A DNA stretch of 64,000 nt from Heptranchias perlo (taxonomy: Eukaryota): the NCBI RefSeq assembly GCF_035084215.1, contig NC_090335.1, positions 54,126,001 to 54,190,000 of the forward strand, given 5' to 3'. The notes below the pieces were generated by a model that did not search any database, was not told the DNA's origin, and saw only the letters and a program-made list of their open reading frames with translations. The position numbers and the translations under genes were made by a program. Below are positions 7,258 to 40,027 of the stretch, one piece after another (position 1 is the first letter of the stretch; every line of letters starts with the position of its first letter).

Positions 7258-10210
7258 GAAGAGTGAGGTACAAAACATGACCGGACAGATGGTCTGAGAA
7301 AGCAGGGCAAAGACCAAGGGAAGTCTAGATTAAACTGCATTTCAATGCAAGAAGTCTGATGGGCAAGGCAGATGAACTCGGGGCATGGATGGGCACATGG
7401 GACTGGGATGTTATAGCTATTACTGAAACATGGCTAAGGGAGGGGCAGGACTGGCAGCTCAATGTTCCAGGGTACAGATGCTATAGGAAAGATAGAGCAG
7501 GAGGTAAGAGAGGAGGGGGAGTTGCGTTCTTGGTTAGGGAGAACATCACAGCAGTAGTGAGAGAGGATATATCCGAGGGTTCGCCCAAGGAGTCTATATG
7601 GGTAGAACTGAAAAATAAGAAGGGAGAGATCACGTTGATAGGATTGTACTACAGACCCCCAAATAGTCAACAGGAAATTGAGGAGCAAATATGTAAGGAG
7701 ATTACAGACAGCTGCAAGAAAAATAGGGTGGTAATAGTAGGGGACTTTAACTTTCCCAACATTGACTGGGACAGCCATAGCATTAGGGGCTTGGATGGAG
7801 AGAAATTTGTTGAGTGTATTCAGGAGGAATTTCTCATTCAGTATGTGGATGGCCCGACTAGAGAGGGGGCAAAACTTGACCTCCTCTTGGGAAATAAGGA
7901 AGGGCAGGTGACAGAAGTGTTAGTGAGGGATCACTTTGGGACCAGTGATCATAATTCCATTAGTTTTAGGATAGCTATGGAGAATGATAGGTCTGGCCCA
8001 GAAGTTAAAATTCTAAATTGGGGAAAGGCCAATTTTGATGGTATTAGACAGGAACTTTCAGAAGTTGATTGGGAGAGTCTGTTGGCAGGCAAAGGGACGT
8101 CTGGTAAGTGGGAGGCCTTCAAAAGTGTGTTAACCAGGGTTCAGGGTAAGCACATTCCTTATAAAGTGAAGGGCAAGGCTGGTAGAAGTAGGGAACCTTG
8201 GATGACTCTGGAGATTGAGGCCCTAGTCAGAAAGAAGAAGGAGGCATATGACATGCATAGGCAGCTGGGATCAAGTGGATCCCTTGAAGAGTATAGAGAT
8301 TGCCGGAGTAGAGTTAAGAGAGAAATCAGGAGGGCAAAAAGGGGATATGAGATTGCTTTGGCAGATCAGGCAAAGGTGAATCCAAAGAGCTTCTACAAAT
8401 ACATAAAGGGCAAAAGAGTAACTAGGGAGAGAGTAGGGCCACTTAAGGATCAACAAGGTCATCTATGTGCAGAACCACTAGAGATGGGTGAGATCCTAAA
8501 TGACTATTTCGTATCGGTATTTACGGTTGAGAAAGGCATGGATGTTAGGGAACTTGGGGAAATAAATAGTGATGTCTTGAGGAGTGTACATATTACCGAG
8601 AGGGAGGTGCTGGAAGTCTTAACGCGCATCAAGGTAGATAAATCTCCAGGACCTGATGAAATGTATCCCAGGACATTATGGGAGGTTAGGGAGGAAATTG
8701 CGGGTCCCCTAGCAGAGATATTTCAATCATCGACAGCTACAGGTGAGGTGCCTGAAGATTGGAGGGTAGCAAATGTTGTGCCTTTGTTTAAGAAGGGCGG
8801 CAGGGAAAAGCCTGGGAACTACAGACCGGTGAGCCTGACATCTGTAGTGGGTAAGTTGTTAGAGGGTATTCTGAGAGACAGGATCTACGGGCATTTGGAG
8901 AGGCAGGGACTGATTAGGAACAGTCAGCATGGTTTTGTGAGAGGAAAATCATGTCTCACAAATTTGATTGAGTTTTTTGAAGGGGTAACCAAGAAGATAG
9001 ATGAGGGCTGTGCAGTAGACGTGGTCTACATGGACTTTAGCAAAGCCTTTGACAAGGTACCGCATGGTAGGTTGTTACATAAAGTTAAATCTCACGGGAT
9101 CCAAGGTGAGGTAGCCAATTGGATACAAAATTGGCTTGACGGCAGAAGACAGAGGGTGGTTGTAGAGGGTTGTTTTTCAAACTGGAGGCCTGTGACCAGC
9201 GGTGTGCCTCAGGGATCGGTGCTGGGTCCGCTGTTATTTGTTATTTATATTAATGATTTGGATGAGAATTTAGGAGGCATGGTTAGTAAGTTTGCAGATG
9301 ACACCAAGATTGGTGGCATTGTGGACAGTGAAGAAGGTTATCTAGGATTGCAACGGGATCTTGATAAATTGGGCCAGTGGGCCGATGAATGGCAGATGGA
9401 GTTTAATTTAGATAAATGTGAGGTGATGCATTTTGGTAGATCAAATCGGGCCAGGACCTACTCCGTTAATGGTAGGGCGTTGGGGAGAGTTATAGAACAA
9501 AGAGATCTAGGAGTACAGGTTCATAGCTCCTTGAAAGTGGAGTCACAGGTGGATAGGGTGGTGAAGAAGGCATTCAGCATGCTTGGTTTCATTGGTCAGA
9601 ACATTGAATATTGGAGTTGGGATGTCTTGTTGAAGTTGTACAAGACATTAGTTCGGCCACACTTGGAATACTGTGTACAGTTCTGGTCACCCTATTATAG
9701 AAAGGATATTATTAAACTAGAAAGAGTGCAGAAATGATTTACTAGGATGCTACCGGGACTTGATGGTTTGACTTCAAGGGAGAGGTTGGATAGGCTGAGA
9801 CTTTTTTCCCTGGAGAGTAGGAGGTTTCGGGGTGATCTTATAGAAGTCTATAAAATAATGAGGGGCATAGATAAGGTAGATAGTCAAAATCTTTTCCCAA
9901 AGGTAGGGGAGTCTATAACGAGGGAGCATAGATTTAATGTGAGAGGGGAGAGATACAAAAGGGTCCAGAGGGGCAATTTTTTCACTCAAAGGGTGGTGAG
10001 TGTCTGGAACGAGCTGCCAGAGGCAGTAGTAGAGGCGGGTACAATTTTGTCTTTTAAAAAGCATTTGGACAGTTACATGGGTAAGATGGGTATAGAGGGA
10101 TATGGGCCAAGTGCAGGCAATTGGGACTAGCTTAGTGGTATAAACTGGGCGACATGGACATGTTGGGCCGAAGGGCCTGTTTCCATGTTGTAAACTTCTA
10201 TGATTCTATA
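7258..10210 (+). mobile_element. CR1 LINE, 5'-truncated, near-intact ORF2 (APE endonuclease + RT)
   Basis: ORF 7359-9737 ([32 protein letters not shown]) continues in frame after one TGA into 9747-10130; ends in TTCTATGATTCTAT repeat. Confidence 0.97.
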
Positions 10211-10386: not shown

Positions 10387-12710
10387 ATAAGAACATAAGA
10401 AATAGGAGCAGGAGTAGGCTATTTGGCCCCTTGAGCCTACTCCGCCATTCAATCAGATCATGGCTGATCTTCCACCTCAATTCCACTTTTCCGCCTGATC
10501 CCAATATCCCTTGATTTCCCCTAGAGTCCAAACATTTATCTATCTTAGCCTTGAACATATTCAGCGACTGAGCTTCCACAGCCCTCTGGGGTAGAGAATT
10601 CCAAAGATTCACAACCCTCTGAGTAAAGAAATTCCTCCTCATCTCTGTCTTAAATGGCCAACCCCTTATCCTGAGACTATGCCCCCTGGTTCTAGACTCT
10701 CCAGCCAGGGGAAACAACCTCTCAGCATCTACCCTGTTAAGCCCCCTGAGATCACCTCTCACTCATCTAAACTCCAGAGAGTATAGGCCCATTCTACTTG
10801 ATCTCTCCTCATAGGACGACCCTCTCATCCCAGAAATCAATCTAGTGACCCTTTGTTGCACCATCTCTAAGGCAAGTATATCCTTCCTTAGATAAGGAGA
10901 CCAAAACTGTACGTAGTACTCCAGGTGTGGTCTCACTAAAGCCCTGTACAGTTGTAGTAAGACTTCCTCACTCTTGTACTCCAACCCCCTTGTAACAAAG
11001 GCCAACATGCCATTTGCCTTCCTAATTGCTTGCTTGTACCTGCATGCTAACTTTTTGTGTTTCTTGTACGAGGACACCCAAATCTCTCTGGACACCAACA
11101 TGTAATAATTTCTCACCATTTAAATAATATTCTGTTTTTCTATTCATCCTATCAAAGTGAATAACCTCACATTGCCCCACATTATACTCCATCTGCCACT
11201 TTCGTGCCCACTCACCTGACCTGTCTATGTCCCTTTGCATATTCTTTGTGCCCTCCTCACAGCTTACTTTCCCACCTAGCTTTGTATCATCAGCAAACTT
11301 GGATACATTACACTCGGTCCCTTCATCTAAGTCATTAATATTGATTATAAATGTAAGGAATCTTACAACACCAGGTTATAGTCCAGGTTACAACACCAGG
11401 TTATTGGACTATAACCTGGTGTTGTAAGATTCCTTACATTTGTCCACCCCAGTCCATCACCGGCATCTCCACATCTTGATTATAAACAGCTGAGGCCCAA
11501 GCACTGATCCTTGCGGCACTCCACTAGTTATAGCCTGCCAAGCAGGAAATGACCCGTTTATCCCCACTCTGTTTTCTGTCCGTTAACTAATCCTGTATCC
11601 ATACTAATATATTACCCCCAACCCCATGAGCCTTTATCTTGCGTAACAACCTTTTAAGGGCACCTTATCGAATGCCTTTTGAAAATCCCCTTTATCGACC
11701 CTGCTAGCTACTTCCTCACAAAACTCTAATAGAATTGTCAAACACGATTTCCCTTTCATAAAACCATGTTGACTCTGCCTAATCATATTATGATTTTCTA
11801 AGTGCCGTTACCACTTACTTAATAATGAATTCCAGCATTTTCCTGGTGACTGATGTCAGGCTAACTGGCCTGTAGTTCCCTGTTTTCTCTCTCCTTCCTT
11901 TCTTGAATAGCGGGGTTACATTTGCTACCTACTAATTCGCTGGGACCATTCCAGAATCTAGGGAATTTTGGAAGATCAGAACCAATGCATTCACTATCTC
12001 TGCAGCCACCTCTTTTAGAACCCTAGGATGTAGGCCATCAGGTCCAGGAAATTTATCAGATTTTAGTTCCATTAGTTTCTCCAATACTTTTTCTCTACTG
12101 ATATTAATTACTTTAAGTTGCTCACTCATATTAGCCCCTTAGTTCCCCACTATTTCTGGTATGCTTTTTGTGTCTTCTACTGTGAAGACAGATGCAAAAT
12201 ATTTGTTCAACGACTCTGCCATTTCCTTATTCTCCATTATGATTTCTCCTGTCTCAGCCCCTAAGGGACCAACATTTACTTTTACTACTCTCTTCCTTTT
12301 TACATTCTTGTAGAAGCCCTTCAACTTGTTTTCATATTTCTTGCTAGTTTACTATCATTTTCTATTTTCTTCCTTTTCATCAATTTCTTGGTCATCATTT
12401 GCTGGTTTCCAAAACTCTCCCAATCCTCAGGCTTACTACTCTTCTTCGCAACATTATAGGCCTCTTCTTTTAATCTAATACTTTCCTTAACTTCTTTAGC
12501 CACAGATGAATCACTTTTCCCATGGAGTTTATATTTCTCAATGGAATGTATATTTGTTGAGAATTTTGAAATATTTCTTTAAATGTTGCCATTGCTTATC
12601 TACTGTCTGACATTTTAATCTAATTTCCCTAATCTACCTTAGCCAACTCGCCCCTCATACCTATGTAATTGGCTTTATTTAAGTTTAAGACTCTATTTTC
12701 AGACTTAAGT
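10387..12710 (-). mobile_element. CR1 LINE, fragmented ORF2
   Basis: Several short - ORFs with RT and C-terminal motifs (LVRPHLEY, NFFTQRVV, PGPDGLHPRVLKE); (TATGTTCT)n tail. Confidence 0.93.
11352..11475 (+). mobile_element. Penelope-like fold-back mini-element, copy 1
   Basis: ~37-bp inverted arms (AAATGTAAGGAATCTTACAACACCAGGTTATAGTCCA), tail GTCCACCCCAGTCCATCACCGGCATCTCCACATC, 11-bp TSD TTGATTATAAA (11341-11351 / 11476-11486); inserted in CR1. Confidence 0.85.
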
Positions 12711-29301: not shown

Positions 29302-29595
29302 CTTGCATTCTCCAAGATGCAGTCCATGACTGTAGCAAGCGTTCATTCTTAATAATACATCTGTAGGTTGTATTTGATGTTTGATCAATCTTCAGAATGC
29401 TTATAATGTTGTAAAGTCCATCTTGATCAATTGATACAGTTTCATTTTTGTCATTAGTTAGGTCAGTCCCATTCTCATCCTGCCATAATAATGATGGCAT
29501 TGGATAAGCACCAGATGCAGAACAGAAAATATCTACAACCTCGGTCCCGGCAGACAGCATACTTGAAGAATATAGTGCCAAATCCTTACAGTCAG
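29302..29595 (-). CDS. HHLA2: HHLA2 IgC exon (DCKDL...IFCSASGAYPMPSLLWQDENG...DGLYNIISIL...YRCIIKNERL...WRMQ)
   Basis: ttccttcCAG acceptor, GTAACA donor, 294 nt, phase 1-1; B7/butyrophilin C-domain signature C-x3-G-x-YP-x-P...W...GLY. Confidence 0.92.
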
Positions 29596-32961: not shown

Positions 32962-33142
32962 ATTATTGCCCCATATATCAGCACAGCTTTGGCCAGATCC
33001 TGAATTTCTGCATTCGTCTTCAAAGTGTATGAATGATATGCAATGATGTAGGATGTTTGCGACCTAGTCAGTGCTGAGCTAAGCCTTGACTCCCGATAAA
33101 GTTTTATATCAGCAATAATTGTCCTCTTAGAGGATAATACCT

Positions 33143-33296
33143 GATGTGGAGATGCCGGTGATGGACTGGGGTTGACAATTGTAAACAATTTTACAACACC
33201 AAGTTATAGTCCAGCAATTTTATTTAAAATTCACAAGCTTGTGAATTTAAAATGAAATTGCTGTACTATAACTTGGTGTTGTAAAATTGTTTACAA
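33143..33296 (-). mobile_element. Penelope-like fold-back mini-element, copy 2 (hairpin tip collapsed at AAGCTT)
   Basis: Reverse-oriented tail GATGTGGAGATGCCGGTGATGGACTGGGGTTGAC; near-perfect palindrome centred on AAGCTT (33235-33240); TSD AGGATAATACCT(G) at 33131-33143 / 33297-33309. Confidence 0.88.
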
Positions 33297-33592
33297 AGGA
33301 TAATACCTGGGTAAGTGTATCAAGGGATATGGATCAAAAGCGGTTTATTGGAGTTGAGGGACAGATCATCCATGATCTAATTGAATGGTTCTGACGGGCT
33401 TTCTCCTGTTCCTATCTTTCTATGTAAAATTTTAAAATATTTTGTTTTATTTTAAGGTTATTATAGATTTAGTTCAATTATATGACTCTTTGATAAGTGC
33501 TTGCAATCAAATGTATTCACATTCTATTAGTTTCCAAATCACAATCAATTCACAGAAAATTCATTTTCAATGGAGAATAATGTATTTCTGAC

Positions 33593-33919
33593 CAGCCACT
33601 TGTAGCTCGATGTTAATTTCTTGTTTTCCTTCTGACGTACTGATGTAACATTGGTACTCTCCTTCATCAATCTTGTTAATTCCTGTAAGATGAAGGGATG
33701 CATTTCCATTCATTATCTCATCGATAAAAAGCATTGTTCTTCCTTTGTAGCCTTGATATTGGTTGGATAGCTGATCAGTCTCGCGATAAAAGCTGTGAAC
33801 AACAATGGTCTCCTTAGACAGTTTGCGCATCCAGTGAAGCACTATTTCAGACAATTGGGTTGGTCGAAATGTACATGGCAAAACAACGTCCTTGGAAATG
33901 ATGGCTGTGATACTCGCAT
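33593..33919 (-). CDS. HHLA2: HHLA2 first IgV exon (ASITAIISKDVVLPCTF...LHW...VVHSFY...DQLSNQYQGYKGRT.LF...GNASL...DEGEYQCYI...LQVA)
   Basis: ctgtttccttttAG acceptor, GTCAGA donor, 327 nt, phase 1-1; classic B7 IgV motifs. Confidence 0.93.
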
Positions 33920-34340
33920 CTAAAAGGAAACAGAGAGAAAAGAGTGTTTTCTGGTGAAAAGTGTTTGACATTTGTGATCCAATTCCCAAGTTTGAAAAAC
34001 AAACCAATGCCTCTTCACAATGGACTGAAGAATCACCAGCAATAATTTCACACAGAGAGGACCATTATTTTGTGGGAAAATGGAACACACTAGCATCGTA
34101 AGGGGCTGTTACTCTGAACGTAGGATTGAAGCAATACACAGATATCTGTGAACTAGATGTGACTCAAAATTATTCGTTGGTGATTGAAAAGTGCAAAAAA
34201 CAGTGCTCTTTTCCAACACCATTTTCACTTATTTTGAATGGTATTTCTAGTCACTTTAATTATCATAGAATCATAAAAATTATAACACCAAGGGAGGGCA
34301 TTCAGCCCATTGTGCCTCTTCAACTAGAGCTATCTGCTCT

Positions 34341-36560: not shown

Positions 36561-39094
36561 CTGGCGAATTTAAATTCAATTAATTAATTAAATTCAATTA
36601 ATTAAAATAAAATCTGGAATTAAAATACTAGTATCAGTAATGATAGCCATGAAACTACCGGATTGTCGTAAAAACCCATCTGGTTCACTAATGCCCTTTA
36701 GGGAAGGAAGCCTGCCGCCCTTACCCGGTCTGGCCTATATGTGACTCCAGACCCACAGCAATGTGGTTGATTCTTAATTGCCCTCTGAAATGGCCTAGCA
36801 AGCCACTCAGTTGTAAAATCTCGCTACGAAAAGTCATAATAAGAATAAAACCACCCGGCATCGGACCACTAGGCACCGGACACGACAACGGCAAAACACC
36901 AAGCCCAGTCGACCCTGCAAGGTCCTCCTTACTAACATCTGGGGACTTGTGCCAATATTGGGAGAGCTGTCACACAGACTAGTCATGCAACAGCCTGACA
37001 TAGCCATACTCACAGAATCATATCTTTCAGCCAACGTCCCAACGTCCCAGACTCTTCCATCACCATCCCTGGGTATGTCCTGTCCCACCGGCAGGACAGA
37101 CCCACCAGAGGTGGCGGTACAGTGATATACAGTCAGGAGGGAGTGGCCCTGGGAGTCCTCAACATTGACTCTGGACCCCATGAAATCTCATGGCATCAGG
37201 TCAAACATGGGCAAGGAAACCTCCTGCTGATTACCACCTACCGTCCTCCCTCAGCTGATGAATCAGTCCTCCTCCATGTTGAACACCACTTGGAGGAAGC
37301 ACTGAGGGTAGCAAGGGCACAAAATGTACTCTGGGTGGGGGACTTCAATGTCCATCACCAAGAGTGGCTCGGTAGCACCACTACTGACCGAGCTGGCCGA
37401 GTCCTGAAGGACATAGCTGCTAGACTGGGCCTGCGGCAGGTGGTGAGCGAACCAACACGAGGGAAAAACTTACTTGACCTCGTCCTCACCAATCTACCTG
37501 TCGCAAATGCATCTGTCCATGACAGTATTGGTAGGAGTGACCACCGCACAGTCCTCGTGGAGATGAAATCCCGTCTTCGCACTGAGGACACCATCCAACG
37601 TGTTGTGTGGCACTACCACCGTGCTAAATGGGATAGATTCAGAACAGATCTAGCAGCTCAAAACTGGGCATCCATGAGGCGCTGTGGGCCATCAGCAGCA
37701 GCAGAATTGTATTCCAGCACAATCTGTAACCTCATGGCCCGGCATATTCCTCACTCTACCATTACCAACCCTGGTTCAACGAGGAGTGTAGAAGAGCATG
37801 CCAGGAGCAGCACCAGGCGTACCGAAAAATGAGGTGCCAACCTGGTGAAGCTACAACTCAGGACTACATGCATGCTAAACAGTGGAAGCAACATGCTATA
37901 GACAGAGTTAAGCGATTCCACAACCAACGGATCAGATCAAAGCTCTGCAGTCCTGCCACATCCAGTCGTGAATGGTGGTGGACAATTAAACAACTAACGG
38001 GAGGAGGAGGCTCTGCAAACATCCCCATTCTCAATGATGGCGGAGTCCAGCACGTGAGTGCAAAAGACAAGGCTGAAGCGTTTGCAACCATCTTCAGCCA
38101 GAAGTGCCGAGTGGATAATCCATCTCAGCCTCCTCCCGATATCCCCACCATCACGGAAGCCAGTCTTCGGCCAATTCGATTCACTCCACGTGATATCAAG
38201 AAACGGCTGAGTGCACTGGATACAGCAAAGGCTATGGGCCCCGACAACATCCCAGCTGTAGTGCTGAAGACTTGTGCTCCAGAACTAGCTGCGCCTCTAG
38301 CCAAGCTGTTCCAGCACAGCTACAACACTGGCATCCACCCGACAATGTGGAAAATTGCCCAGGTATGTCCTGTCCACAAAAAGCAGGACAAATCCAATCC
38401 GGCCAATTACCGCCCCATCAGTCTATTCTCAATCATCAGCAAAGTGATGGAAGGTGTCGTCGACAGTGCTATCAAGCGGCACTTACTCACCAATAACCTG
38501 CTCACCAATGCTCAGTTTGGGTTCCGCCAGGACCACTCGGCTCCAGACCTCATTACAGCCTTGGTCCAAACATGGACAAAAGAGCTGAATTCCATAGGTG
38601 AGGTGAGAGTGACTGCCCTTGACATCAAGGCAGCATTTGACCGAGTGTGGCACCAAGGAGCCCTAGTAAAATTGAAGTCAATGGGAATCAGGGGGAAAAC
38701 TCTCCAGTGGCTGGAGTCATACCTAGCACAAAGGAAGATGGTCGTGGTTGTTGGAGGCCAATCATCTCCGCCCCAGGGCATTGCTGCAGGAGTTCCTCAG
38801 GGCAGTGTCCTAGGCCCAACCATCTTCAGCTGCTTCATCAATGACCTTCCCTCCATCATAAGGTCAGAAATGGGGATGTTCGCTGATGACTGCACAGTGT
38901 TCAGTTCCATTCGCAACCCCTCAGATAATGAAGCAGTCCGAGCCTGCATGCAGCAAGACCTGGACAACATCCAGGCTTGGGCTCATAAGTGGCAAGTAAC
39001 ATTCGCGCCAGATAAGTGCCAGGCAATGAACATCTCCAACAATTGTAAACAATTTTACAACACCAAGTTATAGTCCAGCAATTTTATTTTAAAT

Positions 39095-39131
39095 TCACAA
39101 GCTTTCGGAGGCTTCCTCCTTCGTCAGGTGA
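39095..39131 (-). ncRNA. Minimal type I hammerhead ribozyme motif (mirror copy)
   Basis: Exact reverse complement of 39144-39180. Confidence 0.75.
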
Positions 39132-39143
39132 ACGATGTGAAAA

Positions 39144-39180
39144 TCACCTGACGAAGGAGGAAGCCTCCGAAAGCTTGTGA
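39144..39180 (+). ncRNA. Minimal type I hammerhead ribozyme motif
   Basis: UCAC-CUGACGA-A-GGAGG-AAG-CCUCC-GAA-AGCU-U-GUGA: stem I UCAC/GUGA, CUGANGA and GAAA core, stem II GGAGG/CCUCC, palindromic AGCU stem III. Confidence 0.75.
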
Positions 39181-40027
39181 ATTTAAAATAAAATTGCTGG
39201 ACTATAACTTGGTGTTGTAAAATTGTTTACAATTGTCAACCCCAGTCCATCACCGGCATCTCCACATCATCTCCAACAAGAGAGAGTCTAACCACCTCCC
39301 CTTGACATTCAACGGCAGTACCATCGCCGAATCCCCCACCATCAACATCCTGGGGGTCACCATTGACCAGAAACTTAACTGGACCAGCCATATAAATACT
39401 GTGGCTACGAGAGCAGGTCAGAGGCTGGGTATTCTGCGGCGAGTGACTCACCTCCTGACTCCCCAAAACCTTTCCACCATCTACAAGGCACAAGTCAGGA
39501 GTGTGATGGAATACTCTCCACTTGCCTGGATGAGTGCAGCTCCAACAACACTCAAGAAGCTCGACACCATCCAAGATAAAGCAGCCCGCTTGATTGGCAC
39601 CCCATCCACCACCCTAAACATTCACTCCCTTCACCACCGGCGCACTGTGGCTGCAGTGTGTACCATCCACAGGATGCACTGCAGCAACTCGCCAAGGCTT
39701 CTTCGACAGCACCTCCCAAACCCGCGACCTCTACCACCTAGAAGGACAAGGGCAGCAGGCGCATGGGAACAACACCACCTGCACGTTCCCCTCCAAGTCA
39801 CACACCATCCCGACTTGGAAATATATCGCCGTTCCTTCATTGTCGCTGGGTCAAAATCCTGGAACTCCCTTCCTAACAGCACTGTGGGAGAACTGTCACC
39901 ACACGGACTGCAGCGGTTCAAGAAGGCGGCTCACCACCACCTTCTCGAGGGCAATTAGGGATGGGCAATAAATGCTGGCCTTGCCAGCGACGCCCACATC
40001 CCGTGAACGATTAAAAAAAAATACATG

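Follow-up and report, generated by a model that had tools for sequence, protein, structure and literature searches.

In the genome of the cartilaginous fish Heptranchias perlo, a perfect hairpin carrying two back-to-back minimal hammerhead ribozyme motifs turns out to be a remnant of a Penelope-like retroelement (PLE). The hairpin lies at positions 39031-39279 of a stretch of 64,000 nucleotides (hereafter the window, to whose numbering coordinates refer) and is no separate element: both of its arms are pLTR sequence, and the insertion is a 5'-truncated, inverted product of a coding PLE. A sequence-only reading of the window had regarded it as a special non-coding element, but the genome has no fewer than 2,157 hairpins with back-to-back hammerheads, of which it is one. 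By itself the locus is an ordinary dead stub, and its interest lies in the statistics of the family. We consider it probable that the insertion arose in a single step by twin priming: the two ends left by a staggered cut of 12 nt would each prime cDNA synthesis, both cDNAs would run to the 5' end of the RNA and the two arms would be joined.

The inverted-repeat arms (39039-39131 and 39144-39236) are 93 nt each, 100% complementary and separated by 12 nt, and the predicted hairpin fold has an energy of -162.3 kcal/mol, against -43.7 ± 3.8 kcal/mol in 200 shuffles (z -31.5). A 12-nt direct repeat at 39031-39042 and 39268-39279 is the target-site duplication (TSD), and the insert, a head-to-head pair of pLTR fragments, has a length of 237 bp. 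The perfect 93-bp repeat, the 12-bp TSD and a 31-nt tail had been described from the letters and were reproduced in full. In the element numbering used here, 0 is the base just before the ATG of the parent and corresponds to 39268. The tailless, short-end arm (39043-39144, minus strand) covers the pLTR from -137, the predicted transcription start, to about -36, and the tailed arm (39144-39268, plus strand) covers -124 to 0, its first base being common to both arms (1-nt overlap). Since the minus arm extends 5' of the plus arm, the 12 nt at 39132-39143 (minus strand), which had been read as a loop between the arms, belong to the tailless arm as its 5' leader (-125 to -136), with no spacer. The Penelope 'tail' (39233-39268, plus strand) lies between the element 3' ends at about -36 and 0, and its counterpart in the parent borders on the start codon of the ORF. 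The arm ends run into the TSD, with an overlap of 4 nt on the left and of 1-3 nt on the right: the left copy (39031-39042, plus strand) shares its last 4 nt with the element RNA at the short RT start site (-35 to -32), and the right copy (39268-39279, plus strand) shares its first 3 nt with that RNA at 0 to +2.

The insertion breaks a host LINE ORF on the plus strand into an upstream part with an RT domain (37730-39042; RVT_1, E 5.9e-36) and a downstream part (39280-39958). When the insert and one TSD copy are removed, the frame reads AMNISN-KRESN, as had been claimed, and a test of 361 codons gave 0 stops; the perfect arms, the perfect TSD and the open host frame support the earlier view that the insertion is very recent. 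That the palindrome is a chimeric artefact of assembly is hardly credible. Contigs from four DNA-type sets did not span the locus, where other copies of both repeats saturated the alignment, and this leaves room for such an artefact; nevertheless, asymmetric ends at the two canonical positions of the family, a TSD of the modal 12 bp and an exact break of the LINE frame are unlike a read fold-back.

A parent with RT and GIY-YIG domains, which the Penelope origin proposed for the hairpin called for, was found elsewhere in the genome. At locus L031 (G000:C1:6096500-6106400), which sits inside a minisatellite-like array, a 5'-truncated copy is followed by a full unit of 3,069 bp; the copies of this partial tandem are 99.2% identical over 2,166 bp and have the hammerhead arm at both pLTRs, to each of which the tailed arm of the insertion is 97.6-98.4% identical. 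The tailless arm has its 5' end exactly at -137, 29 nt behind the TATA box of the parent, and the last base of the parent's tail is the one that precedes the ATG. The ORF of 902 aa is intact; RVT_1 was matched at E 2.8e-10, above the Pfam cut-off, and a GIY-YIG in the C-terminal part at 23.3 bits against a cut-off of 22.6 (profile search, C-terminal 170 aa), while a comparison with PDB gave no match at E≤0.1. The translation contains the DKG motif (PADKGG) and a two-cysteine GIY-YIG core, 'VVYLIRCRKGC/W..WYIG' (CCHH), in which the second C of the pair is W in the L031 copy and C in other copies, and a CX4CxxC linker, PCHGNLCKTC, lies upstream of this core. DKG and the two GIY-YIG cysteines (CCHH) are listed as features of EN+ PLEs, and a CX2-5CxxC linker between RT and EN as typical of the Neptune and Nematis clades (PMC8557442); the predicted linker of the parent fits the Neptune/Nematis type, which does not separate Neptune from Nematis. 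More full-length tandems lie near C1:3.12, 4.43 and 4.46 Mb.

An inverted 5'-truncated copy, a one-sided tail of 30-40 bp and a TSD characterize EN+ PLE insertions, and all of them are found at 39031-39279. Published insertions of this class, Pen2a_Av among them, likewise consist of a head-to-head inverted, 5'-truncated copy with a 31-bp one-sided tail and a short TSD, and come from a parent in partial-tandem arrangement, with a tail that abuts the ORF start or extends into it (PMC3846280); a general scheme is given in the Fig. 2 legend of PMC8557442, and forms from D. virilis in PMC2377424. The inverted pLTR, the one-sided 31-bp tail and the TSD (PMC3846280), as well as dual hammerheads on opposite strands (PMC4209133), are already published. 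In contrast to the published EN+ PLE insertions, there is no ORF between the arms here, and tens of thousands of copies let the ends be counted; moreover, the TSD of A. vaga measures 8-10 bp (PMC3846280), whereas here the lengths centre on 12 bp. The EN+ PLE papers attribute the inversion to self-priming and the tail to endonuclease resolution (PMC3846280; PMC8557442), and how the inverted repeats and the one-sided tail arise is a question that PMC8557442 still treats as open. The family described here is a countable footprint of this unsolved integration mechanism.

A pattern search of the genome returned 60,868 exact copies of a 30-mer of the arm, 31,152 of which read on into the tail (ratio 0.51, exact pattern, genome-wide), and 6,876 exact copies of the hammerhead 37-mer. 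Insertions were sampled from the first 45 Mb of one contig and the window, and the sample, being picked by exact patterns, is biased to young copies. A first set of 161 insertions comprised 89 inverted ones, 66 single arms, for most of which no TSD was found, and 6 others. The inverted insertions were divided into 68 with a tailed and a short arm (66 once segmental duplicates were removed), 13 tailed with an unclassed arm, 4 short with an unclassed arm, 1 short-short, 1 unclassed and 2 groups that appeared tailed on both sides but were adjacent insertions merged by the grouping rule; in 17 pairs the second end was not classable with the reference used. The 3' ends gather at two positions, 0 (116/269) and -36 to -33 (84/269). 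Over all fetched loci, 67 of the 70 short inverted pairs have one tailed and one tailless arm, with 2 tailed on both sides and 1 on neither, and in loci L226-L285 alone this holds for 30 of 33 pairs, the other 3 being tailed on both sides. Five pairs violate the one-tail rule or are partial; among the exceptions at L237, L267, L268 and L035, three are tailed on both sides (one of them partly) and one is without a tail.

These counts bear on the idea of a retrozyme- or MITE-like hairpin, non-autonomous but self-contained, which spreads as a unit by using its ribozymes. Thousands of similar hairpins exist, the hammerhead structure is conserved and non-LTR retrozymes derive from PLE pLTRs (10.64898/2026.07.22.740005), all of which would suit it, but the idea is very improbable, because the centres differ from copy to copy (as they do among the 50 hairpins listed), the insertion sizes grade without a break from about 100 bp to over 3 kb, the insert at 39031-39279 has no TATA box and its ribozyme is predicted to be masked in its own transcript. 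A MITE-like unit was rejected since its copies should share one internal structure, whereas the junctions differ between copies. Identity with non-LTR retrozymes was rejected as well: these are also non-coding, hammerhead-bearing and pLTR-derived, but they are direct tandem repeats with hammerheads on the same strand (PMC7229834; 10.64898/2026.07.22.740005), whereas the insertion is an inverted one-off product with hammerheads on opposite strands.

A TSD was found in 57 of 66 one-tail insertions, with lengths of 11 bp (3), 12 bp (35), 13 bp (12), 14 bp (5) and 15 bp (2), a distribution centred on 12 bp whose longer tail is as chance extension would give. In the 35 cases with exactly 12 bp, each TSD end was compared with the RNA start site on its own side: the mean matching run was 1.2 at the tail end, against 0.47 in shuffled pairings, and 1.71 at the short end, against 0.66, with p=0.0002 for both, which is the floor of 5,000 permutations. 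Each end matches its start site about 2.5 times more than shuffled pairings do (n=35), and the geometry of the match, as read from the sequence, is that of 3' overhangs serving as primers.

We propose that the GIY-YIG/RT protein, probably as a dimer, would nick both strands 12 nt apart and generate 3' overhangs. The RNA would offer two internal start sites at a distance of 36 nt, and each overhang would pair with it at one of them over 1-4 nt. With a transcript that begins in the pLTR (TATA+29/30) as template, each cDNA would run out after only 100-137 nt, and both cDNA 3' ends would be trimmed and then joined by end-joining. Downstream-pLTR templates of a tandem transcript would instead give long arms and full copies, and the hammerheads would be passengers copied from uncleaved RNA. 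In favour of such an event, both arms at 39031-39279 are the parent's pLTR, they end at 0 and about -36, and a 12-bp TSD flanks them. The 66 single arms in the set of 161 and the five pairs that depart from the one-tail rule or are partial count against it. In the twin priming of L1, both ends of a staggered cut prime cDNA, which produces an inversion, and the cDNAs are copies of separate parts of a single RNA; here, in contrast, both arms copy the same RNA stretch.

A closer likeness is found in PAc, the Poseidon element of Anolis carolinensis, which in vitro nicks and extends both strands, uses two internal RT start sites bounding the tail, accepts uncleaved RNA as substrate, has AT-rich targets and is predicted to act as a dimer (PMC11167929). 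Its start sites are 111-118 nt inside the ORF (PMC11167929), whereas here, counted from the ATG, they fall at about -36 and at 0 to +3; the parent also differs from PAc in its CX4CxxC linker of the Neptune/Nematis type, and the genomic copies differ in showing a single site for each strand and target-RNA pairing of 1-4 nt. Because the in vitro work found no start-site difference between strands and no homology with the cut DNA (PMC11167929), a strict one-site-per-strand rule and the microhomology go beyond it. The wider proposal is that twin priming is obligate in Penelope elements, with a dimer, a fixed 12-nt 3' stagger and one RNA start site for each strand (strand displacement might allow a single RNA to serve both), and that the 200-240-bp hairpins are 'strong-stop' cDNAs mapping the transcription start to the base; we see the chances for and against it as even. 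If true, a single scheme would account for three features at once: the inverted pLTR, the tail and the requirement for tandem copies. For the in vitro system of PMC11167929 the family gives testable numbers: a 12-nt stagger, one start site per strand, primer pairing of 1-4 nt and run-off at TATA+29/30. A literature search did not find a one-site-per-strand, fixed-stagger, run-off (twin-priming/strong-stop) model for PLEs; the 2005-2006 reviews by Evgen'ev and Arkhipova, which lay outside the search, may state it.

The arms themselves allow a comparison with a fold-back, close to the reading in PMC3846280 and PMC8557442, in which one cDNA (or an antisense template) would loop and copy itself and the endonuclease would resolve the second end at -36, leaving a one-sided tail. 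Fold-back also predicts one tail per insertion. It agrees with the identity of the arms in 53 of 75 pairs, against 79% discordance under random pairing, which later homogenisation would fit equally, and with the junctions, of which 33 of 67 have an overlap of 1-3 nt (3 are blunt, 30 have filler and 1 an overlap of 6 nt). However, a copy cannot exceed its template, and the tailless arm reaches at least 3 nt further 5' in 33 of the 67 pairs (the tailed arm in 16, with 18 ties), with the tail on the other arm only; at 39031-39279 each arm holds sequence that the other lacks, so that fold-back is impossible there without extra trimming, by which it is in part rescuable. Furthermore, the arms differ at recurrent subfamily variants in 8 of the 75 pairs (one of which is probably two separate insertions), and the short end shows target-RNA microhomology as the tail end does. 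On these grounds we regard fold-back as unlikely. With 53 identical pairs and 8 differing at recurrent variants, one RNA and two RNAs from the same source are indistinguishable. The junction fillers, of up to about 200 nt (L024/L025, L016/L017, L035, L007/L008), are short, repeated pieces of the element 5' end or unrelated repeat DNA, and their form is one that we take to resemble end joining of the polymerase-theta type.

The 5' ends of the arms carry the argument for run-off, as distinct from twin priming in which short arms would end at an RT stall or by trimming just past the hammerhead structure, which we think rather improbable. Three subfamilies have the sequence TATAAAT upstream of the hammerhead, at a spacing of 42, 36 and 35/36 nt. 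When 5' ends are placed on real, subfamily-specific copies (a one-subfamily reference gave false peaks at -121, -122, -125 and -266), they peak at TATA+29/30 in all three (23/88, 15/90 and 10/63 arms) and are seldom further up. The shift of the peak between subfamilies has a Fisher p of 2.4e-9, or of 6.6e-5 without the junctions having at least 2 nt of microhomology with the partner. A distance of 29-30 nt is that usually seen between a TATA box and the start of RNA polymerase II, and from the TATA spacing alone we infer that transcription would start at TATA+29/30, which corresponds to -137 in subfamily A and -130 in B and C. Nested genome-wide counts in 7-nt steps fall from 5,698 to 3,604, 1,724 and 1,238 (to 63%, 48% and 72%), with the largest drop spanning -137, the last step also losing known variants. 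For a stall speak the 43 of 95 arms (least biased sample) that end at -116 to -139, just 5' of or within the hammerhead 5' strand, and the A/T-rich starts at which all three peaks lie, so that a sequence-dependent stop may be at work; against it, the hammerhead keeps its place whereas the peak shifts along with the TATA box, by 6-7 nt from one subfamily to another, and ends are rare upstream of the peak (0/22 between -151 and -164 in subfamily A). A further peak, small in size, is found in subfamily C at -138 (5 of 61 at risk), and no extra G, as a copied cap would leave, was seen at the peak 5' ends.

The hammerhead motifs are present in each arm as the sequence-only reading had claimed, at 39144-39180 (plus strand) in the tailed arm and at 39095-39131 (minus strand) in the tailless arm, and a loose hammerhead pattern run over the window gave two matches only, from 39144 (+) and from 39131 (-). 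The plus-strand motif is composed of a stem I of 4 bp, the core CUGACGA, an unpaired A, a stem II of 5 bp, GAAA and the palindromic AGCU, with the cut predicted between 39176 and 39177. CUU, the triplet at the cut, is a slower hammerhead cleavage triplet. Across 229 motif matches (131 fetched stretches plus the window; a few come from another family, and variants count copies and not independent events), AGCU is kept and N7 is C, G or T; the second commonest variant (21) changes a G-C of stem II to A-U, and a C-G to U-G change in stem I is also among the variants. As stems I and II stay paired while the free N7 varies across subfamilies, the motif is real for the element and the minimal type I architecture stands. 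Rfam gave no hammerhead match on the insertion at E≤1, just 9 below-threshold hits to hairpins of the miRNA type, a silence that is expected because minimal forms needed a custom descriptor (PMC4209133). The metazoan PLE pLTR hammerheads share the 4-bp stem I, the unpaired nucleotide after A9, G10.1-C11.1, the palindromic 15.2-16.2 and the lack of a loop III, and Schistosoma has dual motifs on opposite strands 100-700 bp apart (PMC4209133); in comparison with these, stem II has 5 bp here, U stands at the cut and the motifs are just 12 nt apart. A second, unrelated minimal hammerhead family, with other stems I and II and an ACGT palindrome, gave 4 matches in the fetched stretches and probably represents another Penelope family.

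A working ribozyme presented on either strand, as had been supposed, is not what modelling predicts. With the two hammerheads on opposite strands there is a single sense copy per transcript, so that pairing in cis is impossible; whichever strand is read, transcription reaches the antisense arm before the sense one, and the predicted duplex (-162 kcal/mol) faces a hammerhead fold of -9.9 kcal/mol, the probability of stem II within the 93-bp duplex being about 3e-18. The ribozymes at 39031-39279 are thus probably inactive, buried in the duplex. Across the family, most inserted arms cross the cut site uncut: the whole core is present in 83 of 95 arms, which extend to -116 or further, and 6 of 94 (least biased sample) end just 3' of the cut, at -84 to -91. 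Among the 22 arms ending at -66 to -115, 7 end at -84 to -91, a borderline cluster (p=0.05), and none at -90/-91, the cut itself. The genome holds thousands of perfect hairpins of 90-100 bp, many surely in introns, which are a potential dsRNA load; dsRNA or siRNA from the hairpin at 39031-39279 is possible on paper.

The insertion lies in a LINE about 5 kb upstream, with respect to the minus strand, of the IgV exon of a B7-family gene (33585-33920, minus strand). An IgC exon of this gene is found at 29303-29587 (minus strand) and a candidate signal-peptide start at 34096. The gene had been named as probable HHLA2, an assignment that we do not retain: the best PDB matches of the two exons are CD276 and VTCN1, and the window yielded no second IgV exon. 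In the intron between IgV and IgC lies a second inverted insertion of the same Penelope family (33142-33296), with a tailed and a tailless arm and a 13-bp TSD, whose arms join through the AAGCTT palindrome of the hammerhead, so that both ribozymes are lost. Another LINE contains, at 11349-11475, a short insertion in inverted form with its arm partly duplicated, which belongs to a related subfamily (about 91% identity over 71 nt), and a long, apparently young LINE ORF, of 802 aa and 130 aa split by one stop, extends over 7329-10130.
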